Position numbers and translations under genes: made by a program
Part shown: positions 784 to 17,043 of the stretch, piece after piece
Layout: the number at the start of each line of letters is the position of its first letter
How positions within the stretch are numbered: position 1 is the first letter of the stretch
Notes under the pieces: model-generated
The model's database searches: none
The model's input: the letters and a program-made list of their open reading frames with translations, nothing else
What the model was told of the DNA's origin: nothing
Source: a virus
Lineage: Duplodnaviria; Heunggongvirae; Uroviricota; Caudoviricetes
Strand: one strand, 5' to 3'
IMG/VR virus record: IMGVR_UViG_2802429225_000003
Location: 1 to 17,043 of that record
DNA length: 17,043 nt

Positions 784-1217
784 TGGCAAACGTAATTTAT
801 CGCGGTCCGGCATATCGTCAGCCGGATACTACAAACATACAGGTTACTGGTGCGTATAAACCAGGTGTGGCGGTCATCATTTCCGCTGGCAAGCTGCTTA
901 CGACCGGTTCCGCAAAAAGCGGACGCTGGCTGATTCTCGGTAATAACGAGTTTTTAGGCCAGGACATCGATACCGCCTACACGGCGCATGAAACAGCAAC
1001 CGCTTACCGGGTACGCGCTGAAGATGAATTTAATGTGCGCCTTGCCGCAGCTACTTACGGCGTCGGACAGGAGATTACCATTGGTGCGAACGGCGTATTT
1101 AAAGCGGCTGCGTCCGGAGATGTCGTTGTCGCTGCTTTTGACGAAAAAGCCAATCGCACTTTGTCCGCTGAGGGATTTGGCGACATCGTGATCCTCAATT
1201 CCGCTTACGTTAAATAA
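783..1217 (+). CDS. Head decoration protein (lambda gpD-like position)
   Basis: 144-aa ORF immediately upstream of the major capsid gene; GGAGGAAAA Shine-Dalgarno upstream; translationally coupled to the upstream ORF; Gly/Ala-rich small protein. Call based on synteny. Confidence 0.5.
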
Positions 1218-1225
1218 GGAAAATC

Positions 1226-2287
1226 ATGCTTAAATTTACACCACAACAGCAACAGCTAATCATTAACTCCCGACGCCACTGGGACATGGAGCAGGAGCAT
1301 ATGGCACTGCGGGCGGGATATAAGGTTAACAAGGTGGGCGGCGCCATTCTTGCGGCAAACTCAGGTGACGGTAATGTGCTTGGGTTAAATCAGGGGATTA
1401 TTGGTAACGCATCCACGTTACCAAAGGATGCCTGGGGGGCATGGGACCGCTCTTTTGTTGAAGTGCAACGCGATGTTCTTGCGGTGTTTAATGACCTGGC
1501 GGGAACTGTTTCGCAGACTGTACCACTGGGTAAAATCGTGCATTTCTTCCAGATGCTGTCAGATTCCGGTGATATCAATATCAGCCTGGACGGCCGCAGC
1601 AAAGCGAAAGTCGATCAGCCAGTTCACTCGTATGAAGGTACGCCGGTTCCAATCATCGATTCGGAGCTGGAATACGGATGGCGCCAGATGTTATCTGCTC
1701 AGACTGAGGGGTATTCACTCGACTCTGACGGAATCATGAACCATCAGCGAAAAATTGCTGAAAAACTGGAAGATCTGGCTATTAATGGCGATTCCACCAT
1801 CAATGTTGGCGGAGCGACGATTTACGGTCTTCGCACAGCGCCATATCGCGCCACAGGTACTCATGGTTATACGTTGAATGGCGCGTCTGGCGCGAATTGG
1901 TTAAGTGTAATTAAGGCGGTGGTAGCAGCCATCATGGCTAAGAATTTCCGTGCCCCGGTCACCATTTATCTGAATTACGATGACTGGTTCTACGCGAGCA
2001 CCAACGATTACACGGCGAGTTATCCGAAAACTATTCTGGCGCGTTTGATGGAAATTCCCAACGTCAAGGCAATCATCCCTGCGAGCAAAGTCCCGGTAAA
2101 TGAAGTACTGGCAATTGTTAAGCGCAGTGATGTTGTGAAAGTGTTGAACGGAATGCCTCCGACTACGCGCCCGAAATCTAGACAGAATCCGGAAGATAAC
2201 TACATCTTCACTGTCATGGCCGCAGCTTCCGTGCAGTACAAGCACGACGCAGAAGGCCAGGCTGGCTACGCTCAATTCACCAAATAA
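1226..2287 (+). CDS. Major capsid protein
   Basis: 353-aa ORF in the canonical position after the decoration protein; AAGGAAAA Shine-Dalgarno 7 nt upstream; size typical of lambda gpE-type major capsid proteins. Confidence 0.65.
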
Positions 2288-2296
2288 GGGATCACC

Positions 2297-2569
2297 ATGA
2301 CCGATAAAAAACGCTGGGTTTTAACCCATGACAGTCACGAACTGAAAAAAGGAGAAATCTATGAAGATGAATCACTCCCGGCCTGGCTCGCAGGAAAAGC
2401 CGTTCCTGCGGCTGATTCTGTCGGCCCTTCTGAAAATCTGGAAAAGGCGCACGAAGCGTTGATTCAGGAGAATGAATCACTACGCGCTCAGATTGCCGAA
2501 GTCACCAGCGAAAAAGACGCCCTGGCGAAAGAAAACGCCGACCTGAAAGCTAAACTCAAAAAGGCGTAA
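2297..2569 (+). CDS. Hypothetical head-associated protein, C-terminal coiled-coil
   Basis: 90-aa ORF with AAGGGA Shine-Dalgarno; C-terminal heptad-like charged segment (ENESLRAQIAEVTSEKDALAKENADLKAKLKKA). Confidence 0.45.
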   Translation: MTDKKRWVLTHDSHELKKGEIYEDESLPAWLAGKAVPAADSVGPSENLEKAHEALIQENESLRAQIAEVTSEKDALAKENADLKAKLKKA

Positions 2570-2571
2570 TT

Positions 2572-2955
2572 ATGGCTGACAGCGGAATCACCGCTGATCA
2601 GATTAACGTGTTCCTTGCCGAACTTGGCTACTCAATACCTGCCGCACTCCTTGATCCAATCCTCTGTCGCGTGAACTCAATAACCGATTGCCTTGAGGCG
2701 AACGGCTATGACTCATGTACGCAAACGCTCATTTTGATGTACGCCGCTGCGCTTATGTGTATGTCATCAGGAGCGAGACGGTTGAAATCACAAGGTGCTC
2801 CCAGCGGGGCGAGCCGGTCATTTGAATACGGTGAGGATGCCGCCATCTGGCTGCGGGAATCATTAGGTCAACTGGATACTGCCGGATGCTCGGCGGATCT
2901 GCCAATCAGTGCTGGTGATGGTGTCGGTTTTTTCCGGGTTGTGGGAGGGGGTTAA
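2572..2955 (+). CDS. Head-tail connector / head completion protein (gp6/FI-like position)
   Basis: 127-aa ORF between the capsid and tail genes, starting 3 nt after the previous stop. Call from synteny only. Confidence 0.4.
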   Translation: MADSGITADQINVFLAELGYSIPAALLDPILCRVNSITDCLEANGYDSCTQTLILMYAAALMCMSSGARRLKSQGAPSGASRSFEYGEDAAIWLRESLGQLDTAGCSADLPISAGDGVGFFRVVGGG

Positions 2956-3125
2956 TGACGTGGAAATCTGTAAAACATTCGCTCCCACGGTCATTTACTC
3001 GCGTCTGGGTAATGACCGATACCGGGCGCGAGACAACCGGTTACGTCAAAAGCGACGGTGAATGGTTTATCAACTGTCCAAAAATCCGCGCTACCGGTGC
3101 GATCGTGTTGCGATGGAGGGAATAA
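2955..3125 (+). CDS. Small hypothetical protein (56 aa), translationally coupled
   Basis: ATG at 2955 overlaps the upstream stop (TAATG) and is preceded by GGGAGGGGG; its stop overlaps the next ATG at 3125 (TAATG). Below the 60-aa cutoff of the supplied ORF track. Confidence 0.35.
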   Translation: MTWKSVKHSLPRSFTRVWVMTDTGRETTGYVKSDGEWFINCPKIRATGAIVLRWRE

Positions 3126-3478
3126 TGTCAGCTACGGCAAACTGGTCTTATACGGCAAAAGCGACCATCTGGAAGCGTAGTGGCGTGGATGAGTGGGGCA
3201 AGCCCGCATATTCTGCGCCCGTTGTTATTACCTGCGATTACGGCGGGGATAATAAATTACCCTCGCCATTGGTCAGTGATGCCGGACAGGAGGTGGTAAT
3301 TAAAAACACCATCTGGACTGAATACGCTGAAGCGAGTCTGGGGGATTTTGCTCTCATTGGTGAATCATCCGAGCCAGATCCGATTTCTGCCGGGGCCGAT
3401 GAAGTTAAGGCGGTTATCCGCTACGCAGATACATTTGACCGGGTGGCTGATGACTTCATGCTCGTAACGGGGGCGTAA
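3125..3478 (+). CDS. Head closure / head-tail joining protein
   Basis: ORF-track start at 3062 lacks a ribosome-binding site; the ATG at 3125 is preceded by GGAGGG and overlaps the upstream stop, so the shorter 117-aa form is preferred. Position between head and tail genes. Confidence 0.5.
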   Translation: MSATANWSYTAKATIWKRSGVDEWGKPAYSAPVVITCDYGGDNKLPSPLVSDAGQEVVIKNTIWTEYAEASLGDFALIGESSEPDPISAGADEVKAVIRYADTFDRVADDFMLVTGA

Positions 3479-3846
3479 TGGCTGCAAAAGTTAAAGGTAT
3501 TAACCGGGCAAAAAAACGGCTGGACCAACTGATAGACACAATCCAGGGGAAAAAAGCTGTTCGGGCTATTTATAAAGCGTTGTACATCGGAGGGGCGCAG
3601 GCTGCGCTGTATACCCCCATCGACACGTCAACATTAATCAACTCTCAGTTTCGCGATGTTCGTCCGGGGCAAAACCGGGTTACGGGCCGCGTTGGGTATT
3701 CAGCGGGCTACGCCATGTTCGTCCACGATCCGCAGGTGAAACAACAGTTCCGGCGCGCGACGGCCAAGAAGGAGTTCCTGAAGTTAGGGTTTGACGAAAT
3801 GCGCGACCAGATTGACAGAGCAGTAGCAGAGGAGATGCGCCTTTGA
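3478..3846 (+). CDS. HK97 gp10-family tail component (neck/tail completion)
   Basis: 122-aa ORF with a PIDTSTLINS motif resembling the conserved DTGxLxNS signature of HK97 gp10-like proteins; TAATG coupling to the upstream gene. Confidence 0.55.
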   Translation: MAAKVKGINRAKKRLDQLIDTIQGKKAVRAIYKALYIGGAQAALYTPIDTSTLINSQFRDVRPGQNRVTGRVGYSAGYAMFVHDPQVKQQFRRATAKKEFLKLGFDEMRDQIDRAVAEEMRL

Positions 3847-4223
3847 GTACGCCAGTATTCATTAAATTTCGCGACTGGCTGGTTGGTGCGGGGTTGGCAG
3901 ATGGCTACACCATTCAGCTTGCGCGCTGGCTGGAGCAACCATCTGACGGCGGCTTCACTCGCTACATTGTTTTTCAGCCGAATGGAGGTACAGCACGGCT
4001 GCAGGATTTAGGGGCTGACGATAATGTGCAGGTGGTACTGGTCAGTGGCAAGAACGATGCGCAGACAGTCGTTCAGCGAGCGCAGGATATTCTGGATTAC
4101 ATCACCGAACATCCTGATAACGATTGTCTGAACGGAGTTTTTAATCTGGGTGGTATTCCTGCTCCCGCCAGTACAGAAGAGGGCCGAACGATTATCTCTT
4201 TGCTGTTCCGCTGCACATCCTGA
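3843..4223 (+). CDS. Tail terminator / tail completion protein (gpU-like position)
   Basis: 126-aa ORF with an apparent TTG start overlapping the upstream stop, AGAGGAG 8 nt upstream; last gene before the major tail protein. Confidence 0.45.
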   Translation: MSTPVFIKFRDWLVGAGLADGYTIQLARWLEQPSDGGFTRYIVFQPNGGTARLQDLGADDNVQVVLVSGKNDAQTVVQRAQDILDYITEHPDNDCLNGVFNLGGIPAPASTEEGRTIISLLFRCTS

Positions 4224-4248
4224 TCAACAAACTCTCTCCAATATACAG

Positions 4249-4271
4249 GCTGCCCCCCGGGTGGCTTTTTT
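4249..4271 (+). terminator. Putative intrinsic terminator or attenuator upstream of the major tail gene
   Basis: GCUGCC / GGUGGC stem (6 bp including G-U pairs) with a 5-nt loop, followed directly by a T6 tract. Confidence 0.35.
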
Positions 4272-4297
4272 ATTTATGAATAATGAATGAGGTTTTT

Positions 4298-5047
4298 ATG
4301 GCTAGTTGCCAGAATGACTATGGAAAATTAATTGGGCGCAACGCAGTGCTTGAGGTTGTCGAGGGCTGTCCGGACACGGTGCCGCAGGAAGCCGACTGGA
4401 AGATCCTGGGGGCGATGACGACCAAATCGTTTGACCTGTCTCCAAACACCGTAACGTCAGAAGCAGACGACACGAAAGGCTTTGTTGAGGGACTGGTAAC
4501 CAGCGTGGACTTCACCATCTCTGGTGACGGCGAATGGCGTAAGCGTGATAAGCCTGGTGATTTCGGTCCGGCGTATATGACTCGCTATTACCTGCAGGAA
4601 ACAAAAGCGGGTCGCCAGCTGTCCGTGTGGGTTCGTCTGTCGTTTGCGACTATTACTATCACGGCGTACATGAATACCACAGCGTGGAGCGGAGAATTTG
4701 GCACTGGAGATATCGCGACATTCTCGGCTGAATTCAAAGTCGCAGATGCTGACAGCGTTACTGTAACGGATGACGGTGATATCGCTGTGACGAGTATAGC
4801 GGTTACGCCCAATTCACTCGGACTGAAAGTGGGAGAAAGCGGTACATTCAGCGTGAATTTTCTCCCTGCAAACGCGACAAACAAAAATTTCACCCTGGCT
4901 ACCGCCGCGCCTGCAATTGCTACAGCCAGCGTAGCAGCCTCCACTGTAACCGTAACGGCAGTAGCGGAGGGCTCGACTACGGTAACCGTGACCAGTGACG
5001 ACGGGAAATACACATCCAGTTGTGCAGTCACTGTAACGAGCGAGTGA
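4298..5047 (+). CDS. Major tail protein with C-terminal Ig-like (Big_2-type) domain
   Basis: Thr/Val/Ala-rich C-terminal segment (TVTVTAVAEGSTTVTVTSDDGK) typical of the Ig-like decoration domains on lambda gpV-type tail tube proteins; GAGG 6 nt upstream of the ATG at 4298 (an alternative ATG at 4283 lacks a Shine-Dalgarno). Confidence 0.7.
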   Translation: MASCQNDYGKLIGRNAVLEVVEGCPDTVPQEADWKILGAMTTKSFDLSPNTVTSEADDTKGFVEGLVTSVDFTISGDGEWRKRDKPGDFGPAYMTRYYLQETKAGRQLSVWVRLSFATITITAYMNTTAWSGEFGTGDIATFSAEFKVADADSVTVTDDGDIAVTSIAVTPNSLGLKVGESGTFSVNFLPANATNKNFTLATAAPAIATASVAASTVTVTAVAEGSTTVTVTSDDGKYTSSCAVTVTSE

Positions 5048-5051
5048 GAGT

Positions 5052-5708
5052 ATGGACGCACTTACAGATATCGGCGAAATGGTGATATCAACACGCGACG
5101 ATGATTTTTTTTTGCGTCCGTCTTTTATCGCTCTGACCCGAATCGGCTCTCCGGAAGAAATTGTGGAGGCGTACTCCATCATTAACGGCAGAGATTTTGG
5201 TGTACTGGTGCGCGCTGCGGAGTTGCAGGGAGTGCCGTCACCATGGCTGGTGGAATCTGTGAGCGGAACGGCATCCAGGCGAATGCTTAACGCCGCAATG
5301 ACGGTAATTCAGGCGTGTTGTGACAGGGATGCCACAACGCTGGTGGGGGAGCTGGCAGATGATTTGACTCGTCAACACGGCCTGATACCGGATACCGATA
5401 TGCTGATTATTGCGCGTGAATTACTGGAGCATGGCGTTATGGGCAAAGCGCCACTACGCAGATTGCAAAAGCACGAGAATCAGCAGACTTATACGGCAGG
5501 CTTTCGGGCTGTAGAGTATATCACCGCCGCACGTTCACACTTTGGACTTCCACGCGCCGAAGCGGAACAGCTCACAATGACCGCATTTCAGTTAATGCTT
5601 AAAGCGAAATACCCTGAAGAGAAAGGCTTCACCCGCGATGAGTACGATGGCATTATGGCTGCGCACGAGCAGCGGAAAATGCAAAAACTGGAAGCGATGA
5701 AGGCGTAG
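5052..5708 (+). CDS. Tail assembly chaperone (G/GT-like position)
   Basis: 218-aa ORF between the major tail and tape measure genes; GAGTGAGAG Shine-Dalgarno. No overlapping -1 frame extension of 60 aa or more is present downstream. Confidence 0.45.
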   Translation: MDALTDIGEMVISTRDDDFFLRPSFIALTRIGSPEEIVEAYSIINGRDFGVLVRAAELQGVPSPWLVESVSGTASRRMLNAAMTVIQACCDRDATTLVGELADDLTRQHGLIPDTDMLIIARELLEHGVMGKAPLRRLQKHENQQTYTAGFRAVEYITAARSHFGLPRAEAEQLTMTAFQLMLKAKYPEEKGFTRDEYDGIMAAHEQRKMQKLEAMKA

Positions 5709-5787
5709 TGGATTTATGTCAGAAGAATTTGCCGACGGCAGGTAATAGAAGAAAGCCCCGGAAACATTAAGCGTTCTGTAAGTAGCT

Positions 5788-5810
5788 AAATGTTTGCCGA
5801 GGCAACATTT
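5788..5810. promoter_or_regulatory. Imperfect inverted repeat (stem of about 10 bp) in an AT-rich intergenic region
   Basis: AAATGTTTGCC-GA-GGCAACATTT; lies downstream of both the + strand chaperone gene and the - strand acidic gene; no adjacent U-tract on either strand. Confidence 0.3.
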
Positions 5811-5901
5811 ATATGCTCAATACATTCAGATTAACCTTTTTCCCCCTCTTGGTTAAGGAGGCGACGGTTATTAAGTTACCAAAACAGGTGCTGCGCTTGT
5901 G

Positions 5902-6270
5902 TTATTCATGATGTGAATATTGCAAATCGTCAGCTTCACGAGATATATCAAAAAGGATATTTATCGCCAGAAGATATGCATTATCTACAACGCCATATGT
6001 CTCTGGAGTGATAGTGTTAGTATATCGATCGAAAGCATCTTCCAGGTAATCAAGCAAATCGTCATTTAAATACTCACTTCTCGGATCAAGCGCATGCAGA
6101 CCTTTAATACTCTCTCTATATTCGCTGAAGATTTTTGATATAAACGCTTGTTGTTCTGACCAATCATACAAATTAGCAATGGTAAGAGGCCTGTTAAGTT
6201 GTTCAAGTCGGGTGAGTTCACGAACCAACGACTGACAACCATCTCGAAGTTTTTCTGCTGTTAATGCCAT
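5902..6270 (-). CDS. Small acidic hypothetical protein (122 aa); antisense moron within the tail module
   Basis: Only convincing minus-strand gene in the window. The ATG at 6270-6268 is preceded by AGAGGG with a 6-nt spacer; the longer ORF-track form (to 6339) has no ribosome-binding site. Protein carries about 24 Asp/Glu against about 11 Lys/Arg. Flanked by AT-rich non-coding DNA. Confidence 0.55.
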   Translation of the reverse strand: MALTAEKLRDGCQSLVRELTRLEQLNRPLTIANLYDWSEQQAFISKIFSEYRESIKGLHALDPRSEYLNDDLLDYLEDAFDRYTNTITPETYGVVDNAYLLAINILFDISREADDLQYSHHE

Positions 6271-6412
6271 AATTAGCCCTCTGAGATTATTTATAGAAAG
6301 TAATATCTTACTATTTTTGCATTGAAGGCGGAGCTTCACCAGCCAGTTTTGTCAATTCAGTTATGGTGAGCGACTCCTGGCCTTCATGATGTATGACGAT
6401 GTAACAAGACCA

Positions 6413-6437
6413 CCTCGCTCCGGCGGGGTTTTTTATT
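6413..6437 (+). terminator. Hairpin plus T-tract just upstream of the tape measure start
   Basis: CCUCGC-UCCG-GCGGGG stem-loop (6 bp with one G-U pair, tetraloop) followed by TTTTTTATT, ending 15 nt before the tape measure ATG. Confidence 0.3.
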
Positions 6438-6451
6438 GCCCGGAGAATGAC

Positions 6452-9400
6452 ATGGCAGATGAGAAGAACGTCGGCAGTATCGTTTATGAAATAAGCGCAG
6501 ATGTCAAACCGCTGCTACAGGGCGGGAAGCAGGCCATTGATGCACTGGACAAACTGGATACTGCAGCCCAGCAGTCTGGAAGAGGGATGAGTAACCTGGA
6601 CCAGAGCGCGTCGCAAACCGGCACCACGTTTACTGAACTGGCCAGTTATGCTAACTCAATGGACAATCAGCTTCGTAAGCTGAACACCAGCGTGAGCGGT
6701 ATTGCGCGCGCGATGATGGAGGCTCGTACTGGTGTCAGCAGTACCACGAGTGAGTTAAATCGTGGCAATGCAGTAATTGAAGCACTCGGTAACCAGGTCG
6801 CAATACTTGAGGAAGCCCAGGAGAACGGAGCCAGAAGCGCAGCAGTTTTCGCCTCGCAGTTAAGAGCTGGTGCCAATGCTACGGAGGAAGAAAAGCGCAC
6901 TATCGCCGAATTGGCAGGCGTGTTTTATGATCTTAGCGCCGCCTCCGCTAAGGCTGCTAAATCAGCCGCATCGATGGCGGCCGCAACCCAACGTACAGAA
7001 TCATCAATATCCGGACTAGAGAAGGAAGTCTCTATTCTGAATACTGAGATGCAAACTGGTTCCAGAAGTGCTGCCATACTTGCTGCTCAGTTTAGTGCTG
7101 GTGAAGGTGCGTCTGACGCGCAAAAAGCCAAAATTGCACAGCTTGCAGGTGCTCTTTTTGATATGCGGGAGGCGCAAAAATCTGCATCTGCGGCATCAGC
7201 GGAGGCAGCTAAGCAACTTGCGCAGCAGGCAAATGAAGCGAACCGTATCAGCGGAATCACATCTGACCTTTCTAATCAAATAGCTATCCTGAGCGAACAG
7301 CAAACCAACGGAGCCCGCAGCGCAGCAATTCTGGCTGCTCAGTTACGAGCCGGAGCAAGTGCAACTGATGCCGATAAGCAGAAAATAGCCCAATTAACCG
7401 GGCAACTGTACGACATGAAGAACAGTGTCGATACAGGCACAAAAAGCCACGTCAACTGGAAAACCAGCGTACAGCAGGCCGGTTACCAGGTTCAGGACTT
7501 CATTGTTCAGGTGCAGGGTGGTCAGTCTGCTCTTGTTGCGCTCTCGCAGCAAGGATCTCAGCTTGCCGGGATTTTCGGCCCTGGCGGTGCGGTGGTTGGG
7601 GCTATAATTGCGCTTGGTTCTGTCCTCGCGGGCGTGTTGATTACGTCGCTGAATGGCGGCAAGAATGCCATGGTTGCGCTGAAAGAGGCTGCCGAGGCAA
7701 TGGACAAGGTGATCATCGTATCATCACAAGGTGTAGCCGCTCTTTCGGATAAATATGCGGCCCTTGCGCGTGTAAACGCTGACGTTGCAACGCTGCTCCG
7801 TAATCAGGCGCTGCTTGAGTATAACCAGGCCATTTCCAAGATACCGAAGGCCATAAGCGAAGCATCTGATGCTTTTATTACGTTCGGCGACCGTGCGATT
7901 GCCGCCGTTGGCGGGGCGTCGCCGAGCATCAAAAAATTCAACGCCGAGTTGTCCGCTCTCGGGGTCACTTCGAAGGAATGGGGAGAGGCAATTCAGCAGG
8001 CCAATAGTCAGGGGCAGTACGCATCTGGCATCGTAAACTCGCTGTCATCAACGGTGAATACACTTTCATCCCGACTTGGAATAAGCAAACAAGCTGCGTT
8101 TGATTTGGCAAGAGAATTGTCAAATCTGAGTAATAACCCATCACCGGAAGCACTTCAGGAGCTGGCGAAAAAACTCCAGGACATGAAGTCGTCATCCACT
8201 GACGGGCAGTCGGCCATCGCAGGACTGGCGGGTAAGCTTGTTGATCTGGCGAGAGAGGCAGCCAACGCGAAGATCAATGTAGACAGCCTGAATCAGTCCA
8301 CCGATAACCTGACCGCCGGACAGAAAAACCTTATCAAGCAGTCCGGACGTAACCTTGCCCTGTCAAAACTACAGGGTGAGGCTCGGGCCCGCCTGCAGGC
8401 ACAGTATGCCGCTGAAGATGCGGGATTTTCGAAGGACGATCCGCACGCCAAACAGATGGAGAACGACGCCGCAGCTACGTACAAAAATACGCAGGCGCAG
8501 AAAGATTTCCAGTCAACACATAAGAAAAGCATTTCACTGGCTGATTCTGTTGCTCAGAAGTTAGCGAATCTCAAGCAGCAATCGGAGCTCGCAGCCGACT
8601 CAACAAATGAGCTGAGCCGTGAGCAGGCCATGCTGACTGCGCAGCAGTCTCTTGGTAAAGGTGCAACCAAAGAGCAGATCGTATTAGCTGGTCAGTATGC
8701 AGCAAAAAAATGGGATACAGCCAACGCCATAAAAGCTGAAGCAGCGGCCCGAAAGCTCCTCCCTGAAGCAGCAGAGAACGCCAGTTACAAACAGGATGTT
8801 GAAGATCTGAATACCGCCCTGGCTGCGAAGAAAATAAGCCAGGAGCAGTACAATCAAACCTCGGAAAGACTGGCAGCAACACACCAGGCTAACCTCGCAA
8901 AAATTCAGTCGCAGCAGGTGGTAACGCCTCAACAGGAACTTGCGGCGCAGGTTGATCCCGTTCAGCAACTGGCGAATGAGAACGCAAAGAAACTGATACT
9001 CATTGATGAGTACAACAAGGCTGCGCTTGCAATCGTAAATGCAAGGCTGGCTAATGAGTCGCTAAGTCAGAGTGAAGCTGCTGCACAGTCAGCCGCTATT
9101 AACGCAAATACTCTTGCGTTAAAAAATACTCAGGAAACACAGTATGAGGAACAGAGGCTGGCAGCTCTGGAGCAGCAGTACCGTGCGCAATCAGTGTTGA
9201 ATGACTTTACGATGGATATGATCGACGCAGTCGGGCAACGAACCACCAACGCAATCACCGGCATTATTACCGGAACGCAGTCAGCAACAGATGCGCTACG
9301 AAATATGGCTTCAACAATTCTTGATCAGGCCGTTGGTGCTTTAGTTCAGATGGGTGTCCAGGCACTTAAAAACATGCTGATAGGGCAGTCAGCCAGTGCT

Positions 9401-9910
9401 GCTTCTGTTGCGCAGGCTGCAATAACAGGGCCTGCCATTGCCGCAGCATACAGCCCGGCAGCGGCGATGGTTTCGCTCGCATCATTTGGTGCAAATGCCG
9501 CAGCAGCTCAGACGGGGATCGCTTCAACAATGGGACTTACAAAAATGCTGTCCGTCGCTGGCGCTCGCTACAACGGTGGCCCGGTTTCCGCTAACTCAAT
9601 GTATCGCGTAGGTGAAAACGGCAAGCCAGAAATATTCCAGGCCAGCAACGGCAGTCAGTACATGATCCCCGGCGATAACGGACGAGTTGTCAGCAACAGA
9701 GATATGCAGGGCGGAAATAGTTCATCTCCTGTAAATATTGTCATTAACAATACGGCAGCGGGAACCGTTGTAGAAAATCAGGGTTTTAATCCGGACACGA
9801 AAACTATCACCCTCGCAGTGAACGAAGTCGCAAGGCAATTACGCTCGCATACGGGGGTAGTTGCTCGTGCATTGTCTGATAGCTGGAACACCACAGGAAA
9901 GGCACAATAA
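6452..9910 (+). CDS. Tail tape measure protein
   Basis: Longest ORF (about 1152 aa from the ATG at 6452, which has GGAGA 5 nt upstream; the upstream ATG at 6386 has none). Ala/Gln-rich helical composition, internal tandem repeats, a central hydrophobic Gly-rich segment (AGIFGPGGAVVGAIIALGSVLAGVLITSL) and placement before the tail-tip genes. Confidence 0.85.
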   Translation: MADEKNVGSIVYEISADVKPLLQGGKQAIDALDKLDTAAQQSGRGMSNLDQSASQTGTTFTELASYANSMDNQLRKLNTSVSGIARAMMEARTGVSSTTSELNRGNAVIEALGNQVAILEEAQENGARSAAVFASQLRAGANATEEEKRTIAELAGVFYDLSAASAKAAKSAASMAAATQRTESSISGLEKEVSILNTEMQTGSRSAAILAAQFSAGEGASDAQKAKIAQLAGALFDMREAQKSASAASAEAAKQLAQQANEANRISGITSDLSNQIAILSEQQTNGARSAAILAAQLRAGASATDADKQKIAQLTGQLYDMKNSVDTGTKSHVNWKTSVQQAGYQVQDFIVQVQGGQSALVALSQQGSQLAGIFGPGGAVVGAIIALGSVLAGVLITSLNGGKNAMVALKEAAEAMDKVIIVSSQGVAALSDKYAALARVNADVATLLRNQALLEYNQAISKIPKAISEASDAFITFGDRAIAAVGGASPSIKKFNAELSALGVTSKEWGEAIQQANSQGQYASGIVNSLSSTVNTLSSRLGISKQAAFDLARELSNLSNNPSPEALQELAKKLQDMKSSSTDGQSAIAGLAGKLVDLAREAANAKINVDSLNQSTDNLTAGQKNLIKQSGRNLALSKLQGEARARLQAQYAAEDAGFSKDDPHAKQMENDAAATYKNTQAQKDFQSTHKKSISLADSVAQKLANLKQQSELAADSTNELSREQAMLTAQQSLGKGATKEQIVLAGQYAAKKWDTANAIKAEAAARKLLPEAAENASYKQDVEDLNTALAAKKISQEQYNQTSERLAATHQANLAKIQSQQVVTPQQELAAQVDPVQQLANENAKKLILIDEYNKAALAIVNARLANESLSQSEAAAQSAAINANTLALKNTQETQYEEQRLAALEQQYRAQSVLNDFTMDMIDAVGQRTTNAITGIITGTQSATDALRNMASTILDQAVGALVQMGVQALKNMLIGQSASAASVAQAAITGPAIAAAYSPAAAMVSLASFGANAAAAQTGIASTMGLTKMLSVAGARYNGGPVSANSMYRVGENGKPEIFQASNGSQYMIPGDNGRVVSNRDMQGGNSSSPVNIVINNTAAGTVVENQGFNPDTKTITLAVNEVARQLRSHTGVVARALSDSWNTTGKAQ
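6750..7440 (+). repeat. Three in-frame tandem repeats of about 77-84 codons inside the tape measure gene
   Basis: Recurring peptide units NGARSAAVFASQLRAGANATEEEKRTIAELAGVFYDL / TGSRSAAILAAQFSAGEGASDAQKAKIAQLAGALFDM / NGARSAAILAAQLRAGASATDADKQKIAQLTGQLYDM, with cores starting near 6824, 7055 and 7307. Confidence 0.6.
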
Positions 9911-10383
9911 TGGCAACGGAAATTAAATGGCCGTTAGGTCTTCACACAATTCAAAAATCCAGTAAAGCGCGCAATCAGTCGGCAGCTTTTCAGTTATCCG
10001 ATCCACGCAGTGGTCCGCCATATCGCAAGCGGCTAAGTGATGACGTGCCGGTTATCTGGGACGTCACATTTATCTTCGCTGGAGACAATGCAACCATATT
10101 CTGGTCGTGGTTTGAAAACGCCATTGACCGTGGGCGCAAAAACTTCATTCTACCCATTGCAACAGAGTTTGGGATTGTTGATCACGAAGTAATGTTTCTG
10201 CCTGGCTCACTGCTACCAGCCAGCGAAGCTGGTACGGTTTTCACGTATACGGCGCAAATCCTTGCCCGCAAACTTGTTATCCCGGCGGAGTTCCCTGACG
10301 ACATCTGGATTGATCCGGATATCTGGAAGTATCGCAGCATTCTCGATCCGGCTGTTAACTGGTACTGGCCAAATAATCCATAG
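9910..10383 (+). CDS. Minor tail protein (tail tip assembly)
   Basis: 157-aa ORF whose ATG overlaps the tape measure stop (ATAATG); first gene after the tape measure, as for lambda gpM or the distal-tail protein of other long-tailed phages. Confidence 0.5.
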   Translation: MATEIKWPLGLHTIQKSSKARNQSAAFQLSDPRSGPPYRKRLSDDVPVIWDVTFIFAGDNATIFWSWFENAIDRGRKNFILPIATEFGIVDHEVMFLPGSLLPASEAGTVFTYTAQILARKLVIPAEFPDDIWIDPDIWKYRSILDPAVNWYWPNNP

Positions 10384-10388
10384 GAAGC

Positions 10389-10889
10389 ATGATGCCTGTC
10401 ACTGATGAGCAGCGGGCGTACTGGAGCCAGAAAAATCCAGCAGCAGAATTTGATACTGTAACATTTACGCACCCGGCCTTTAAGGATCCGATACGACTGG
10501 TCGCCAATGTCTTCAGCGACATGACATTCAACGGTAATACCTACCGCGCCTGCTCAATGGAAATTGACAAGCCCGAACAAGGGAAAGACCCGGTTAGTAG
10601 CGTCAGCGTGAAGTTTAGCCGTCCGCTGGTGGGCGATGAATTTAAGGCAATCATACGGGCGATGGACCCGTTCGACTGGCTGGCGGCACCTATCACTCTA
10701 TGTTTGCAGCAATTCACAGAGGATGACCCGAATAACCCCATTCAAAATTGGTCGCTTTACGTGACCGAAGACGGTATCCGTATTAGCCGAGACACATTGC
10801 AGGTGCAGGCATCCGACGATAACCCGATGATCCTCAATATGAGCCAAGTCTACGATCTCGATCGCTACCCCAGCCTTACATACATATAG
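10389..10889 (+). CDS. Minor tail protein (tail tip assembly)
   Basis: 166-aa ORF, second gene after the tape measure, with a short intergenic gap and an AGGAAG Shine-Dalgarno. Confidence 0.5.
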   Translation: MMPVTDEQRAYWSQKNPAAEFDTVTFTHPAFKDPIRLVANVFSDMTFNGNTYRACSMEIDKPEQGKDPVSSVSVKFSRPLVGDEFKAIIRAMDPFDWLAAPITLCLQQFTEDDPNNPIQNWSLYVTEDGIRISRDTLQVQASDDNPMILNMSQVYDLDRYPSLTYI

Positions 10890-10897
10890 GTTCCTTA

Positions 10898-11326
10898 ATG
10901 ACAAAAGATGAATTTATCCGGCGCGCCGTTGGCCTGCCGTGGGTTGATCGCGCCTGTAGCTGGCGAGCGATGGACTGTTGGGGCGTGGTGGTTATGTATT
11001 TTCGCTATGTCTACGGCGAGGAATTGCCCTGTGTTGAGGGGTATTCCAGCGGCGAAATCAAAATCACCGACGGATTTCAACGCCAAATCCAGAGTGGTAA
11101 ATGGCGGCGCGTTGAATCCCCCGAGGGTGACTGTATTGCATTTATGTTGTTTAAGCAGGGCGTGGCCTCTCACGTTGGCGTGGTTGTGGATGGGCAATAT
11201 GTTTTACACGCCGCAGGTGATGCGCAACATGAGGGGCAGGTGCGCTGCGACCGACTTGATACATTCAGACGGTTTCATCGAGGGGAAATGATTTTTTATG
11301 CCTGGGAGGGGGGCCGATGCTTGTAA
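10898..11326 (+). CDS. NlpC/P60-family tail-associated peptidase (gpK-like)
   Basis: 142-aa protein with a Cys-containing motif (AMDCWGVVV) and a downstream His-rich segment (SHVGVVVDGQYVLHAAG) consistent with the NlpC/P60 Cys-His catalytic core; position matches the lambda K / gene transfer agent g14 slot. Confidence 0.6.
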   Translation: MTKDEFIRRAVGLPWVDRACSWRAMDCWGVVVMYFRYVYGEELPCVEGYSSGEIKITDGFQRQIQSGKWRRVESPEGDCIAFMLFKQGVASHVGVVVDGQYVLHAAGDAQHEGQVRCDRLDTFRRFHRGEMIFYAWEGGRCL

Positions 11327-13832
11327 TTTATCGCGATCCACGCGGTTTGCTGGTAAGGATGTTTATGAGTTCGATTATTCACTTTCCCTGCAAGATAATA
11401 TCGCAAAGCACTTTCCCGGCGGGCTTGATGCCAGCACGACGCTGATTACATGGAACGGTTGCAAAATTAACCCACTTGAAGTTGACTTGTCGCGCCTCGC
11501 GACGCCGCTGGATCACCTGGAAATCATCATCCGACAGCAGGGGATTGGCACCATGCTGATTGTGGCCATCGTGGCGGCAGTTGCTACGGTTGTGCTGATG
11601 CCTAAGCCCACAATCCCCAACTCCAGTGGTTCGCAGAAAGATTCACCTAATAACGATCTCACAGGACAAACCAACGTCGCACGGGTATATCAGGCAGTTC
11701 CGGATATTTACGGTAAGATCCGCGCCTTTCCCGACCTTGTGGCTCCCTCCTTATCTGAATATATAAACAACGTTAAAAACGTAACCGAGGTGTTGTGCGT
11801 TGGGATTGGCGATTATGAATTTGAAAACGTCAAATATGCAGACACATTACTGAGCACCATTGGTGGCGCGTCGTATGAAATATTTAACCCCGGCGACACC
11901 ATTCCAATACTGTATGACGCAGCTGAATCACCGGACGTTGACGGCCAGGAAATTACACCGCCAAACCTGGGCGACACGGTTCTGTATAGCGCGACGACAA
12001 ACAATATTGTTGCTGTTGAGTATGCGAAGGGCAGTAAGGCAATGTCTTTCACGGTACCTAAAAGCGCTGATTTTCAATATTTTGTCGATAAATCAAAGCC
12101 GATTAATGTGAGACTGACGGTAAATCTTGAATATTCAGTTGTCAGCGGCAACGGTAAGACAACAACGAAGAAAGGGGAGTTTCAGGTCAGTGGACAGATC
12201 GTCAGTATTGGTCAGTCAGATAATGGAGATATTATCGCTCCAGAGAACTATTACGATATTGGCATAGATAACGCAACGGTAAGTAACGACTTCCCGGCTG
12301 ATGGCGTCATTACAGGTGATTACCTGAAAATTGAGGATATGGAGGCGTTATTTGTCGGGCCGTTCATCATGGCTTCTGATTCTGATGAAATCTGGTACAA
12401 CGTCATTTTTCAGCGCGGACTGGACGGAACCGCAAATTTAAACGCTGAGTGGTGGCGGGTAGACAAAGACAATAATGTGATTGAGGGGACAGAGGAATCA
12501 GATTCTTTTTCCTATAGCAATGATACGTATGAAGGGCAGTATTTCACTCGCAAGATTATCCCGAAAGCCGGGCGTGGGCGCTACGCATTCCGTATTTCTC
12601 GCACTAATAACGGCAGCGATCAGCTTACTGACCAGGCCAAACTGGAAGAAGTTTATTCAGTTCAGGTTCGACGAAATGTTCGGGTGCAGGACACATTAAT
12701 TCGCTGCGTTACTCCAGCAACGGAACAGGCAACCGGCATTAAAGACCGAAAATTTAATGCTGAGGTGACACGGAAAACGATTACATGGAACGGATCTGGG
12801 GTGGTAGGTGCGTTGACCCCAAGCCGTGATTTTGCTGATGCAGTACTTCATTCGTTTGTCAGGATTGCAGGTCGCGCTGCCAGTGAGCTGGATCTTGATG
12901 CGTTGTACAGTATCAGTCGATCCCTTAAAAACAAGAATGAGCGCATGGGATGGTTCGATTTCTCATTCGATGACAAAGACATCTCACTCGGTCAGCGATT
13001 GCAAACCATATGTAATGCAGCGCGTGTTACGGTATTTCGTGACGGGCTGAAGTGGCGTTTTGTGCGTGACGAGAAGAAAAGCATTATCTCTGCGCAATTT
13101 GATGCCCGTAATCTGGCGAACGTCGATGATGGCGGTACGCTTCAGTATAAGGGACACCTGCCGACAAGTTACGATGGGATTGAACTGGAATGGGTGGACG
13201 CCACGGATACAAATGATGATGGCACAGATAAAAAGGCGTACATCCGATTACGCATTGACGCGTCTCGCAAACGTATTGTGGAAGGCACTTCAAATCGCCC
13301 CTATAAAATCCAGCTTGCCGGGTGCCGCAACAAAGACCAGGCGATGAATCGTGCGCAGCTTGAAGCGAGGCGACTTATCTATCAGCGACTGAGTGTGGAG
13401 GATACGGCACTTAACGATGCGTGGATGCTGTCGCTTGGTGATCGGGTGCGCTGGGCTGACGTTTACGATGAGGCGATTGCCAGCGGTGAAATATTGTCAA
13501 TTGACGGTAATGTGTTCACCACTTCTGAAACTCTCATTTTTGAAAGTGGGGAAACATACAAAGTCAGTATCACAGATCAGTACGGATACCCTTCAGCATG
13601 GATAAGCGCATTGCCAGTAAATGGTAATAAAAGCGCCTTCAGTACTGATTTCAGCAAGGCTTATACCGCCGACGGCATTACTTCCATGCTTGGCAGTCGT
13701 TTCATTATGACGCCTTCAGTTGCCAGTGAACCTATGGATTTCACGCTTACTGAGAAAGGGCCTGGAAGTGACCCTTCACAAACCAGGATCTCGCTCACTC
13801 AATATGATGAACGAGTGTACGAATACGATTAA
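11298..13832 (+). CDS. Tail tip / host-specificity protein (J-like), possibly with an I-like N-terminal region
   Basis: 844-aa ORF overlapping the upstream gene by 29 nt; hydrophobic helix (GIGTMLIVAIVAAVATVVLMP, about nt 11541-11603) followed by a YGKIR motif reminiscent of the C-terminus of tail assembly protein I family members; large protein in the slot before the tailspike. Confidence 0.55.
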   Translation: MPGRGADACNLSRSTRFAGKDVYEFDYSLSLQDNIAKHFPGGLDASTTLITWNGCKINPLEVDLSRLATPLDHLEIIIRQQGIGTMLIVAIVAAVATVVLMPKPTIPNSSGSQKDSPNNDLTGQTNVARVYQAVPDIYGKIRAFPDLVAPSLSEYINNVKNVTEVLCVGIGDYEFENVKYADTLLSTIGGASYEIFNPGDTIPILYDAAESPDVDGQEITPPNLGDTVLYSATTNNIVAVEYAKGSKAMSFTVPKSADFQYFVDKSKPINVRLTVNLEYSVVSGNGKTTTKKGEFQVSGQIVSIGQSDNGDIIAPENYYDIGIDNATVSNDFPADGVITGDYLKIEDMEALFVGPFIMASDSDEIWYNVIFQRGLDGTANLNAEWWRVDKDNNVIEGTEESDSFSYSNDTYEGQYFTRKIIPKAGRGRYAFRISRTNNGSDQLTDQAKLEEVYSVQVRRNVRVQDTLIRCVTPATEQATGIKDRKFNAEVTRKTITWNGSGVVGALTPSRDFADAVLHSFVRIAGRAASELDLDALYSISRSLKNKNERMGWFDFSFDDKDISLGQRLQTICNAARVTVFRDGLKWRFVRDEKKSIISAQFDARNLANVDDGGTLQYKGHLPTSYDGIELEWVDATDTNDDGTDKKAYIRLRIDASRKRIVEGTSNRPYKIQLAGCRNKDQAMNRAQLEARRLIYQRLSVEDTALNDAWMLSLGDRVRWADVYDEAIASGEILSIDGNVFTTSETLIFESGETYKVSITDQYGYPSAWISALPVNGNKSAFSTDFSKAYTADGITSMLGSRFIMTPSVASEPMDFTLTEKGPGSDPSQTRISLTQYDERVYEYD

Positions 13833-13855
13833 CAGATAACTCCTGTTCACCAATG

Positions 13856-13878
13856 CTCGCCGCTGTGCGGGTTTTTTT
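13856..13878 (+). terminator. Putative intrinsic terminator after the tail-tip gene
   Basis: CUCGC / GCGGG stem (5 bp) with a 6-nt loop, followed by a T7 tract. Confidence 0.4.
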
Positions 13879-13889
13879 ATGGAAAAATT

Positions 13890-15864
13890 ATGGCCACACG
13901 TTACAACACCAATAATCCTGTGCCGTCCCATGCGGTTAAAGATTACAGCAACAACGCCCAAATCATTGATGAACTTGTTCATAAACAGGAATCAACAACA
14001 AAAGACCGGTTCGGAAAAGATCTGAAAACCTGGTACGGAATTAATAAAGAGGCGACCGACGCAACGAACGAGTTCATCGAAAACGGTCAGAATGCAATAA
14101 ATACGTTTAACCAGAATGGCAAGGATGCTATCGATAAATTTAGCAACGATAGCAATGCTGCGATTAATGATTTCGAGAGTGATGCGAATCAGGCGATAAT
14201 TAATTACGGTTATATTCTGGTTGACTCATTTCAGATCGGTGCTGAGATCACGCTCCGGAATCAGGCTCTTCACTGGCCTGCGCCAGAGGGTGACGGAGAA
14301 TATTATCGCTGGGACGGTGAATTGCCGAAGACGGTTCCAGCCGGAGCTACGCCGGAAACGTCAGGTGGGGTTGGGCCGGGAGCGTGGATTGACGTTGGTG
14401 ATGCTTCGCTGCGTAGCGATCTGGCGTCTGGAGGTAAGGCTGCATTGGTTGGCTATGGCAGCGCGACTGTAGAGGGTGCTCTTGACGATCTTTATGCCGC
14501 TAACGCTGCTCAGGGGGGGAAACTGGTTTTGATACTGTTGGCCACTTTCTTAATCTGACTGAATTACGTGCGCAGGCGCCTGCTTCAGCCGGAATGATTG
14601 TATATGTTGTTTCAGCAGCCAGCTTGTCACATGCAGAAACTCATCTTGGCGGCGGTTTTTTTGAGTCAGTCGATAATGTCCAGGCATGGCCTGATGATGG
14701 TGGTATTGTAATTAAACCAGACACAGGGTCGATTGTGTGGCGACGCATTAACTTCACCTCATACGATATGCAATTCTGGGGTGTCAAGCCGGACGGGGCT
14801 ACAGATAATGCGGAGGCAATTACGAAGGCCACACAGTATGCAAAGATGAATAAAGTTATCCTGGATGCACCCGCAGGGAATATTAACACAAGCGAAATGG
14901 TCCCTATTTATAATAATATGGGGATTCGAGGCCACGGAAAGGCTGAAGCTACGGTTTTCTATAAAACAACTAACAATATTTTTAATTATAAAAAAATGGA
15001 ACCACAGTTTTATCTGTGGACGCATTGGTAGGTTTTGTTCCAAATAATTGGGATCTTGCTGACTCTTCAATGGATTCATTTTGCTCTAACGGCAGAATTG
15101 AGAGCTGTATGTTTCGTAGACAGGGACTTGACCAATCAAACGTTGACACCTACAGAAATTATTATGGGTTGTTTTTTGGGAAGGCTGCTGCACCTGTAGT
15201 TCGGCAATGTTCATTTGAATGCGCATATATTGGATGTTATTCATACTGTCCATTCTCAGGAGTCATGGAAATGGTTGCATTCCCTCAATATGCAGGGAAG
15301 GGGTATGGTGGGATCGTTTTTGAGGATTTTCGTGGCGGTCAGATAAGGGTAATTGGTACATCAATGGACATGCGTCTTGTTCAAATAAGCGGTTATCAGT
15401 TTGGTTTTATTTTGTCAGGAATGCAATATACAACAATGACAAACTGTACTGCAGAAAATTGCACTCCAATGGCTGGAGAAACGACTTGCTTTGCATTTAG
15501 CTTCATGAACCCTTATTGTATTGTCATGAATACGTGCGCAACAGAAGAAGTAAAGGGCGGGCAGTTAAGAGTAATAGTTCAAGGAGATCCGTCTTTCAGA
15601 CCATCTTTAATTATAAATGGATTTTTGCCTATAGGTCAGAAAAACCCAATTTCAACAACCCCAATCATTTATGTAGACAATGCGGGCCTTGCAGAAACCA
15701 GCGTGATAATTAACGGAGGTGATTGGGCTATAAGTCCATCAGCAACCAACCTTGTCGCACCATCGGCTAGTGGTGGTGGCACGAAGGTCAGAATGATAGG
15801 AGTCAATGGCTCACCTAAATCAATTTGGACCATCTCCGCTAACGCCGATGTGCAGGAGTTTTGA
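13890..15864 (+). pseudogene. Tailspike / depolymerase-like receptor-binding protein, interrupted by two frameshifts at homopolymer tracts (or intact if the tracts are under-called)
   Basis: Three consecutive ORFs in three frames (13890..14558, 14594..15031, 15016..15864). Adding one G to the G7 run at 14513-14519 and one A to the A7 run at 14990-14996 gives one continuous protein of about 658 aa. It has an Asn-rich repeat N-terminus, an LRSDLASGGKAALVGYG segment, a beta-helix-like start (FWGVKPDGATDNAEAITKATQYA) and a Cys-rich C-terminal part. Confidence 0.6.
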
Positions 15865-15927
15865 TTCCCTGTCATTGACATAGCATCTATATGAAACTAC
15901 CCTGCCAGAAACTACACATATTTTGGC

Positions 15928-17043
15928 ATGGTTATGACTAAGAAAAGCAATATAATACATAGTCTTACTTCATTGAGGATGTTTGCTGCCCTTGGCGTGT
16001 TTGTAAGCCATCTGGGAATTTTGTCTCAGTCCTCAATACATCAGTTCAACATAGCTGCAAAATACTTTTTTAATGGGTATGTTGGCGTAACGTTCTTCTA
16101 TATCCTCTCTGGCTTTATTATTAATTACAGTTTTAGCAAGCATTTATCTGAGGGGATGTTTAGCAATAAAGACTTTATTATCTATCGTCTGGCCAGACTA
16201 TTCCCTGTTCATCTTGTTTCACTGGTCTGTGTTCTGTTTTTATTCGGCTATGCAAATAATTGGGGATCTACAAACAAAGAAGCTTTATTCTATAATACAT
16301 TTCTACTTCAATCATTCATACCTGATGCAGGCTATTACTTTTCGTTCAATCCTGTATCATGGAGCATTTCATGCGAAATGTTCTTTTATTTTTGTTTTTG
16401 CCTACTCGTTAAATGCAAAACCAAATATCTCGTATTTCTATTTGCTGCCGTTCAGACTGTAAATGTTTACTTCCTTATACAACCACCAACAGGAATTTCC
16501 TTGCATTGGTTATTCTATATAAATCCTGTATTCAGGATTACAGATTTCATCCTTGGCATTATTATATGTAGAATATTTCTTTCGAAGCCTGTTACTCCAA
16601 AAGTTGTGGCGTGTAGCGCAATGGAATTTGGCTCAATTATTTTTCTAGTGTTAACAATTTATGTGGCAACAAACTACGTGGGCAATATGAATGTTAAATA
16701 TGATCTTTTATATATCCCTTGCATGGCTTCTATTGTTGTTGCGTTTGCCTTTAATGGTGGGGTTATTTCTCGTATTCTTGCAAATAAATATTTAATTTTG
16801 CTTGGAGAAGCTTCATTTTCTTTCTACATGTTCCACTGGATGATAGTATCTAAGTTAATAGAAATAATACAACCTAACAAAAACGATGTGCGTGATGTCA
16901 CTATTTATATAGTTAGCTGCTTAATCAGCTCCGTATTTGTCTCTGTTATTTCGTTTAAATTAATTGAAATGCCAGCAAATAAGTTAATAAGGAATACGTG
17001 GGTAAAGATTAAAATTCAATTACACACAAGAAAACGCGCATAA
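15928..17043 (+). CDS. Acyltransferase-3 family integral membrane protein (O-antigen acetyltransferase-like, probable lysogenic conversion gene)
   Basis: 371-aa strongly hydrophobic multi-pass protein; N-terminal LTSLRMFAALGVFVSH matches the conserved Arg/His-containing first helix of acyltransferase-3 (OafA/Oac-type) enzymes; very low GC; immediately downstream of the tailspike. Start could be the ATG at 15934 instead. Confidence 0.7.
   Translation: MVMTKKSNIIHSLTSLRMFAALGVFVSHLGILSQSSIHQFNIAAKYFFNGYVGVTFFYILSGFIINYSFSKHLSEGMFSNKDFIIYRLARLFPVHLVSLVCVLFLFGYANNWGSTNKEALFYNTFLLQSFIPDAGYYFSFNPVSWSISCEMFFYFCFCLLVKCKTKYLVFLFAAVQTVNVYFLIQPPTGISLHWLFYINPVFRITDFILGIIICRIFLSKPVTPKVVACSAMEFGSIIFLVLTIYVATNYVGNMNVKYDLLYIPCMASIVVAFAFNGGVISRILANKYLILLGEASFSFYMFHWMIVSKLIEIIQPNKNDVRDVTIYIVSCLISSVFVSVISFKLIEMPANKLIRNTWVKIKIQLHTRKRA

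Follow-up and report, generated by a model that had tools for sequence, protein, structure and literature searches.

A probable swapped right-arm cassette, with an O103-type tailspike domain and an O-acetyltransferase gene, in a leuZ prophage of Escherichia marmotae

Why should the base composition of a phage fall inside its tailspike gene, and what does the AT-rich DNA beyond that point encode? The question is posed by a 17,043-nucleotide (nt) stretch of a virus of the class Caudoviricetes (IMG/VR record IMGVR_UViG_2802429225_000003, positions 1 to 17,043), hereafter called the window, which ends in a tailspike gene (positions 13890-15864, plus strand, read in three frames) and an acyltransferase gene. 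A first-pass annotation of the same DNA had proposed that a receptor-binding and conversion module had been swapped inside the tailspike, between the conserved adaptor and the predicted beta-helix, with the break at about 14,560. The exchange itself was borne out, as the tailspike allele of a sister prophage differs from position 14327 onward and the gene pair recurs behind two other kinds of anchor. We think it likely that the right end of the window is a swapped right-arm cassette (an O103-type spike domain plus an O-acetyltransferase) in an Escherichia marmotae prophage integrated at leuZ, the spike half of which has been inactivated.

Allelic exchange within the tailspike gene

The N-terminal adaptor of the tailspike (amino acids [aa] 1 to 146; 13890-14326, plus strand) belongs to the prophage backbone. 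Within it lie a stretch rich in repeats and the first half of Tail_spike_N (PF18668, matched in Pfam at aa 113 to 171, E = 1.5e-17), and its DNA is 97 to 100% identical to that of two related prophages, L011 and L014. The same range of identity holds for the backbones of prophages L011 to L013 (for L011, 97% up to window position 14387 by BLAST). The window matches L011 throughout 14268-14326, and dense divergence begins at 14327; from there L011 carries an unrelated block, holding a 710-aa tailspike and a 627-aa AT3-SGNH acyltransferase, until position 14214 of locus L002 (which contains this end of the window and continues past it; window position = L002 position + 3889), about 130 nt before the leuZ fragment, after which the two are 100% identical over 162 nt. 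Likewise, the sister protein P0151 shares nearly all of the first 146 aa with the tailspike of the window and has a different C terminus. Prophage L014 follows the L011 variants as far as 14267 and from there on, starting at 14327, has the cassette of the window, diverged by about 0.9%. The patterns of L011 and L014 identify 14268-14326 (aa 127 to 146, plus strand), which encodes HWPAPEGDGEYYRWDGELPK and is part of Tail_spike_N, as the left recombination interval and, to judge from the alignments, as a crossover that has been used at least twice. Taken as a whole, the comparisons show the block from 14327 to about 130 nt before the end of the prophage behaving as a replaceable right arm.

The 5' end of the incoming block (14327-14519, plus strand; GC content 0.61, and 0.46 at third codon positions [GC3]) codes for the second half of Tail_spike_N and a Gly/Ala-rich linker (…LRSDLASGGKAALVGYGSATVEGALDD…). 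More distant relatives lose their similarity at other points. A prophage of Salmonella serovar Ank (L007) has the same gene order, with 76% DNA identity over 9134-14425, and is unrelated after that; protein alignments to spikes with other anchors start at aa 172 to 177 (14403-14420), and DNA homology to the cassette of locus L008 starts at 14520. A search with the N-terminal 210 aa gave as its closest match a Salmonella Ank fragment with 73% identity and did not return the protein's own cluster; the sister alleles of the tailspike were identified from the cluster listing.

The alignment to related prophages therefore did not find colinear conservation across the tailspike, and it moved the details of the exchange. 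The junction lies at 14268-14326 (aa 146), about 235 nt upstream of the 14,560 that had been proposed, and it falls inside Tail_spike_N rather than after the adaptor domain. An N terminus of 200 aa had been expected to be conserved in front of a variable C terminus, and the anchor is indeed kept while the C terminus is exchanged, although the anchor measures only about 146 aa. The first frameshift, said to lie near the junction, is at the G7 tract as described and abuts 14520, but this tract is 186 nt downstream of the allelic junction.

Base composition of the right end

The shift from the roughly 50% GC of the structural operon to AT-rich DNA is real. We analyzed the whole window by sliding-window GC and by a maximum-likelihood change-point model, compared with shuffles of 300-nt blocks (n = 500). 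The single change point was at 14879, with a GC content of 0.500 in 1-14878 versus 0.372 in 14879-17043 and a log-likelihood ratio of 62.6, which none of the 500 shuffles attained (highest value, 29.3). In sliding windows, the structural operon has a GC content of about 0.50 to 0.54, which falls to 0.44 in 14501-15000, to about 0.41 up to 16250 and to 0.32 to 0.35 beyond. Other low-GC patches (5750-6500, 11750-12500 and 13500-14250) are each shorter and shallower than this drop.

Within the tailspike the change point is loosely placed: total GC supports it anywhere in 14591-14972, and GC3 anywhere in 14333-14980 (best position, 14468). The 14,560 of the first-pass annotation lies within the second interval and 31 nt outside the first. 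Total GC drops later than the junction because the first ~190 nt of the incoming block are Gly/Ala rich, with 61% GC. Codon usage was also said to differ from that of the upstream genes, and it does: the 15 upstream genes have a GC3 of 0.517 (per-gene range, 0.473 to 0.605), versus 0.357 for the receptor-binding domain (chi2 = 41, p = 1.5e-10) and 0.330 for the acyltransferase gene (chi2 = 47, p = 6e-12), while the tailspike N terminus (0.476) and the linker are both like the backbone. The right end is thus distinguishable from the operon in both GC and codon usage. The poor ribosome-binding sites that had been counted as part of the break are a fact for the tailspike and acyltransferase starts, but they are not distinctive, as no Shine-Dalgarno-like motif was found at 6 of the 14 upstream starts examined.

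A two-gene cassette behind different anchors

The receptor-binding domain and the acyltransferase recur together in other phages. In L008, DNA homology of about 71% runs unbroken over 14520-17002, that is, through the receptor-binding domain, the spacer between the genes and the acyltransferase gene. Phage TL-2011b and P22-like prophages of Escherichia coli have the same gene pair, at about 70% DNA identity and with a spacer of ~70 nt, the P22-like copies lying next to intS. Five of six relatives have an orthologous acyltransferase gene immediately downstream, and the identities of the two products fall in parallel: 79% (domain) and 71% (acyltransferase) in L008, 78% and 72% in L015, 74% and 60% in the E. 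coli P22-like L010, 73% and 60% in TL-2011b (L009), and 57% and 52% in a Morganella locus (L016). The pair is AT rich in every background (0.41 to 0.44 GC for the receptor-binding domain and 0.30 to 0.34 for the acyltransferase gene, in backbones of 0.43 to 0.55), and the AT-rich compositional signature is a property of the cassette. These sequence comparisons show the receptor-binding domain and the O-acetyltransferase gene moving jointly, as an AT-rich two-gene cassette, among at least three tailspike anchors.

One of these relatives, L015 (JAVXBC010000141.1), is a 7-kb contig of an Acinetobacter sp. metagenome-assembled genome that carries a P22-type head-binding tailspike and the acyltransferase gene; it is probably a mis-binned enterobacterial phage contig.

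Receptor-binding domain

The receptor-binding domain (14520-15864, plus strand, read in two frames) was assigned from homologues, phrog_38237 (E = 4e-243) and a structural model to the family Phage_tail_beta (PF27114). It has 70 to 79% aa identity to the C termini of proteins P0003, P0004 and P0012, and the same C terminus is carried on PF09008 and on Uetakevirus-type anchors. A search of PDB sequences gave tailspike matches limited to the N-terminal domain, and the fold was judged by proxy, from the AlphaFold model of an intact homologue (P0001) with the same architecture and 63% overall identity. This model has a predicted local distance difference test score (pLDDT) of 85.8 overall and of >90 in the body, and Foldseek matched it to the beta-helices of tailspike depolymerases (E = 6e-18 to 1e-9), so that the C terminus of the tailspike is predicted to be a parallel beta-helix.

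An O103 receptor-binding subtype has been defined as having at least 30% aa identity over the domain with one of its members (PMC10408124). The domain in the window is 73% identical to that of TL-2011b, 54.5% to PAS7 and 42% to Ro103C3lw (over 94 to 100% of the domain), and PAS7 has been reported as an O103 determinant (PMC11522302). By that threshold its sequence places it in the O103-specific subtype. The host points in the same direction, as proteins encoded by this locus come from sources named Escherichia marmotae or Escherichia sp. MOD1-EC5950, and strain MOD1-EC5950 has been typed in silico as O103:H56 (PMC11546641, Table 1). O103 is the second most common in silico O type of E. marmotae (PMC11546641). 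MOD1-EC5950, hence an O103-typed host, is the probable source strain of the window, although the link is indirect.

The O-acetyltransferase gene and its leader

The second gene of the cassette (15934-17043, plus strand; GC content 0.338) is intact, codes for a 369-aa O-acetyltransferase of the acyltransferase-3 family and ends at the last base of the window. An alternative ATG at 15928 would give 371 aa, but gene callers use the second ATG. Residues 11 to 341 match PF01757 over profile positions 2 to 323 of 326 (Pfam, E = 8e-20), and the protein also matches the PHROGs family phrog_3333, "O-acetyltransferase" (E = 1.7e-67). It is 60.5% identical to the O-acetyltransferase of TL-2011b, which was the only cultured phage with a close homologue (next best match, 35%). 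Kyte-Doolittle analysis gave 12 partly overlapping hydrophobic windows, or roughly 8 to 10 segments. Unlike the sister allele, it has no match to an SGNH domain in Pfam, and no NCBIfam equivalog matched it. On this homology we regard it as a putative O-antigen conversion gene.

Between the two genes lies a conserved 69-nt spacer (15865-15933, plus strand), which was aligned with those of five cassette relatives. It contains TTGACA (15875-15880), 17 nt, and TACCCT (15898-15903), followed by an inverted repeat (15902-15928) that abuts the start codon. The TTGAC and TA..CT columns are invariant in the five relatives, where the inverted repeat, CTGCCAGAA…TTCTGGCAG, extends up to the start codon in place of a Shine-Dalgarno sequence. 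In the consensus, the hairpin includes one compensatory pair (A-U to G-C). The TTGACA-17-TAnnCT site scored below the threshold of a consensus promoter scan. The conservation nonetheless suggests that the spacer probably provides the acyltransferase gene with a promoter and 5' leader of its own. Downstream of the gene, whose GC content of 0.34 compares with 0.50 for the operon, there is a terminator-like hairpin (L002 13177-13194). The combination of spacer motif, hairpin and terminator is consistent with an autonomous, moron-like expression of the gene.

Disruption of the tailspike

Three-frame translation and comparison with intact homologues place two lesions in the tailspike, both on the plus strand. 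The first is a G7 tract (14513-14519) that changes the frame from 0 to -1, where eight G would restore …AAQGG-ETGFDTVGHFLNL… as in the intact homologues; the second, again -1, is an A7 tract (14990-14996), where eight A would give …FNYKKNGTTVLSVDA…, also as in the homologues. The two changes split the gene into open reading frames (ORFs) of 222, 145 and 282 aa, and the repaired protein would have 658 aa. The homologues are single ORFs across both sites (among the 120 best-scoring ones listed, some of which are marked as partial). The G7 form was found in six assemblies and G9 in L014, while A7 occurs in all seven loci, L014 included. Both observed lengths of the G tract are out of frame, and an in-frame G8 was not seen; among 5.8 billion protein clusters no intact copy of the repaired receptor-binding domain was found at >79% identity.

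In the sister prophages L018 and L019 (9567-11701), a GG insertion that the intact L011 copy lacks splits the other tailspike allele into 167 and 566 aa, while the AT3-SGNH acyltransferase gene is intact. This break is present in many isolates and is a second, independent spike inactivation in the prophage family. Between L002 and L014, the acyltransferase gene has one single nucleotide polymorphism in 1.1 kb, versus 12 in 1.5 kb of the cassette tailspike. The simplest reading of these sequences is that the adsorption function has decayed and the conversion gene has been retained.

Alternative explanations

Two alternatives concern the exchange. The drop in GC might reflect the amino-acid content of one beta-helix protein and one membrane protein in an otherwise colinear, vertically inherited operon, without any horizontal exchange; the acyltransferase is indeed a hydrophobic multi-pass membrane protein, and amino-acid content does account for the 61% GC of the linker, whose GC3 is only 0.46. 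However, the shift is also seen at synonymous third positions (0.517 versus 0.357 and 0.330, p ~1e-10), the relatives with the same backbone are unrelated from 14327 onward and the block recurs in unrelated phage backbones, and we give this explanation practically no credence. That the G7 tract, at ~14,520-14,560, is the recombination point itself, and the frameshift a scar of the joining, deserves somewhat more attention, although we still find it unlikely. The homology to the L008 cassette begins one base past the tract, and such a position agrees with the change point of GC3 (14468, interval 14333-14980). Nevertheless, two independent comparisons place the within-species junction at 14268-14326, protein homology to spikes with other anchors is already present from aa 172 to 177 (14403-14420), and the ends of a BLAST match depend on local divergence in an alignment of only 71% identity; moreover, the length of the tract has changed, between G7 and G9, after the join.

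The other two concern the frameshifts. One-base deficits in runs of at least seven identical bases are the classic signature of homopolymer errors in sequencing or assembly, in which case the tailspike would really be an intact gene of 658 aa. We consider this extremely improbable: G7 and A7 recur in six assemblies from different projects, among them a finished chromosome and independent read-set assemblies, and G9 with A7 in a seventh; the other coding A7, T7 and T9 runs of the window leave their ORFs unbroken, and no intact copy (>79% identity) was found among the 5.8 billion clusters. The tracts might instead be functional switches, acting by programmed -1 ribosomal or transcriptional slippage or by phase variation, so that some full-length spike is made. 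The zero frame of the G tract, CA-G-GGG-GGG, is formally a slippery X-XXY-YYZ sequence, from which a -1 slip gives the sequence expected from the homologues; the tract length differs between isolates (G7 versus G9), a small hairpin (z = -1.8) lies 5 nt past the A tract, and most of the substitutions that separate L002 from L014 are synonymous when read in the repaired frame. Still, the A7 site is out of the canonical register, and the fold after the G tract is ordinary (z = -0.9), neither of the two downstream folds being significant. G9 would need the opposite shift, so that no single programmed mechanism fits both alleles. An in-frame G8 was not seen, and a full-length product would take two low-efficiency events in succession. 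The best-scoring homologues listed (120, some of them partial) are uninterrupted ORFs, and the GG insertion that breaks the sister allele lies outside any long tract, which fits decay. We therefore rate a switch as very unlikely, if somewhat less so than an error.

Proposed explanation and significance

Our preferred reading, that of a swapped right-arm cassette with an inactivated spike half, can be spelled out as follows. The first 146 residues, inherited with the backbone, would anchor the spike to the phage tail, and the rest of the right arm would probably be exchanged by homologous recombination, with conserved DNA to the left as one partner and the common att-proximal and chromosomal flank to the right as the other. 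Both products are predicted to act on one O antigen: the spike would bind or cleave it at adsorption, and the acetyltransferase would modify it in the lysogen, so that phages of that specificity no longer adsorb. This shared target is the likely reason why the receptor-binding domain and the acetyltransferase move as a pair. In this lineage, one-base deficits in the G and A tracts have inactivated the spike, whereas the acetyltransferase is intact, and the element would most likely be a resident serotype-modifying locus and not an adsorbing phage.

Several observations weigh against this reading or parts of it. The boundaries are nested (14327, 14425 and 14520), with no single universal junction, and the block swapped in E. 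marmotae also holds ~1 kb past the acyltransferase gene, with a lipoprotein gene, so the "two-gene cassette" and the "right-arm block" overlap and yet are different units. The functions assigned to the spike and the acetyltransferase rest on homology. Published work links the TL-2011b domain (as "group C") to O103 in an indirect way, and the O103 typing of E. marmotae is based on ~87% identity to E. coli markers. Finally, in the corrected frame of the tailspike, L002 and L014 differ by 12 synonymous and 6 nonsynonymous substitutions, a balance unlike that of long neutral decay, although the substitutions downstream of the frameshifts are too sparse to separate decay from constraint.

A bolder interpretation is possible but, in our opinion, doubtful: the pair would be a co-evolving, self-contained serotype cassette across at least three virion anchors, and the leuZ prophage would be under domestication, with the spike repeatedly lost (through the G and A tracts in one allele and the GG insertion in the other) and the acetyltransferase selected, or else the tracts would provide a reversible on/off control of a spike that could otherwise attack the O antigen of its own lysogen. 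That tailspike modules are exchanged along with a linked gene for O-antigen modification has been well documented in P22-like and related phages (PMC2629481, PMC10408124). The phenomenon is ordinary, well-known phage mosaicism, and it leaves the understanding of tailspike modularity unchanged. What the locus offers is a breakpoint interval of 59 nt, which maps cleanly a joint exchange of host range and serotype conversion in temperate phages, in an example from a little-studied species, E. marmotae. The detection or targeting of Shiga-toxin-producing E. coli O103 gives the O103-type domain an applied interest (PMC10408124, PMC11522302), and the acetyltransferase linked to it might change the antigenicity of O103 or the sensitivity to phages.

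Prophage, integration site, and neighboring genes

The window is 100% identical to two E. marmotae loci (L002 and L004) and at least 99.95% identical to the remaining loci listed, and the 222-aa first fragment of the tailspike was found on ten contigs. Its tail operon codes for a Big_2 protein, DUF6246, a tape measure protein, DUF1833, NlpC/P60 and TipJ. Beyond its end come, in order, a terminator, a gene for a 139-aa lipoprotein, a 56-nt 3' end of leuZ, yecA, tyrP and ftnA; from this flank the sequence identifies the window as the right arm of a siphovirus-type prophage that is integrated in E. marmotae at leuZ, a tRNA gene beside yecA. The 56-nt 3' tRNA-Leu fragment at the prophage end, recognized by eye from the known leuZ sequence, is what we take to be leuZ; Rfam and ARAGORN gave no match in the right arm, and ARAGORN found no complete tRNA in the locus. 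The stretch L002 13155-14401 (1 to 1358 nt past the window end) contains, besides the hairpin, the lipoprotein gene (phrog_890) and the leuZ fragment, a G9 run at 13337-13345.

Relatives are scarce at the DNA level. Positions 13700-17043 had no megablast match in collections of phage and E. coli genomes, and 1-13890 matched phages in nothing beyond fragments of 35 to 90 nt. No relative came up when species-representative genomes were scanned with TipJ, and a scan of genomes with the tailspike alignment found three loci only.

The tailspike and acyltransferase genes are separated from the tail operon by an intrinsic-terminator-like hairpin with a T7 run (13855-13878, plus strand; L002 9966-9983 in the terminator scan), which follows the TipJ gene. 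The start of TipJ itself (window 11292-11326) differs among records, which give 844, 838 or 759 aa, and the true start is uncertain; the 844-aa reading starts just past a T6 run, within a G6 run, and overlaps the NlpC/P60 gene by 29 nt. Between the DUF6246 and tape measure genes, a minus-strand ORF of 145 aa (window 5902-6339, GC content ~0.40) occurs in the E. marmotae prophages but not in the Salmonella Ank relative, a distribution that makes it look like an inserted moron; neither Pfam nor NCBIfam gave a match for it. The longest homopolymer of the window, a T9 run (5105-5113), lies within the DUF6246 gene and leaves its frame uninterrupted.

Comparison with known systems

The N-terminal domain of the tailspike resembles in sequence those of TSP1, TSP3 and TSP4 of phage CBA120 (PDB 4oj5, 5w6f and 5w6h; E = 1e-14 to 1e-15), and the predicted beta-helix body matches them by fold. 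However, CBA120 is a virulent myovirus with branched assemblies of multiple spikes and no linked conversion gene, and the identity over the receptor-binding domain is only 12 to 17%. The sister E. marmotae prophages L011 and L018 share the leuZ-yecA site, a backbone of 97 to 100% identity, the first 146 residues of the spike and the layout of the right arm, but differ in an unrelated C terminus of 560 aa and in a longer AT3-SGNH acyltransferase of 627 to 647 aa; their tailspike is intact in some isolates (P0151) and carries the GG insertion in others.

The cassette itself has counterparts in other phage types. TL-2011b (Uetakevirus, from E. coli O103:H25) has the same gene order, with a tailspike (gp48) that is 73% identical in the receptor-binding domain and an O-acetyltransferase (gp49) of 60.5% identity, GC contents of 0.41 and 0.30 and a spacer of ~70 nt with the conserved TTGACA…TAAyCT leader. 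Its N-terminal anchor, by contrast, is unrelated (of podovirus type, without PF18668), its tailspike is one intact ORF of 697 aa and its cassette precedes the lysis genes, whereas that of the window is at the prophage end. In P22-like (Lederbergvirus-type) E. coli prophages, e.g., in strain GPEC349-628, the pair is likewise at the right end, beside the attachment site, with ~69% DNA identity continuous over both genes (at the aa level, 74% for the receptor-binding domain and 60% for the acyltransferase), although there the anchor is the PF09008 head-binding domain, the site is a tRNA-Arg gene with the integrase adjacent and the tailspike is intact. A conversion gene beside the tailspike is the classic arrangement seen with oac in Sf6 and gtr in P22.

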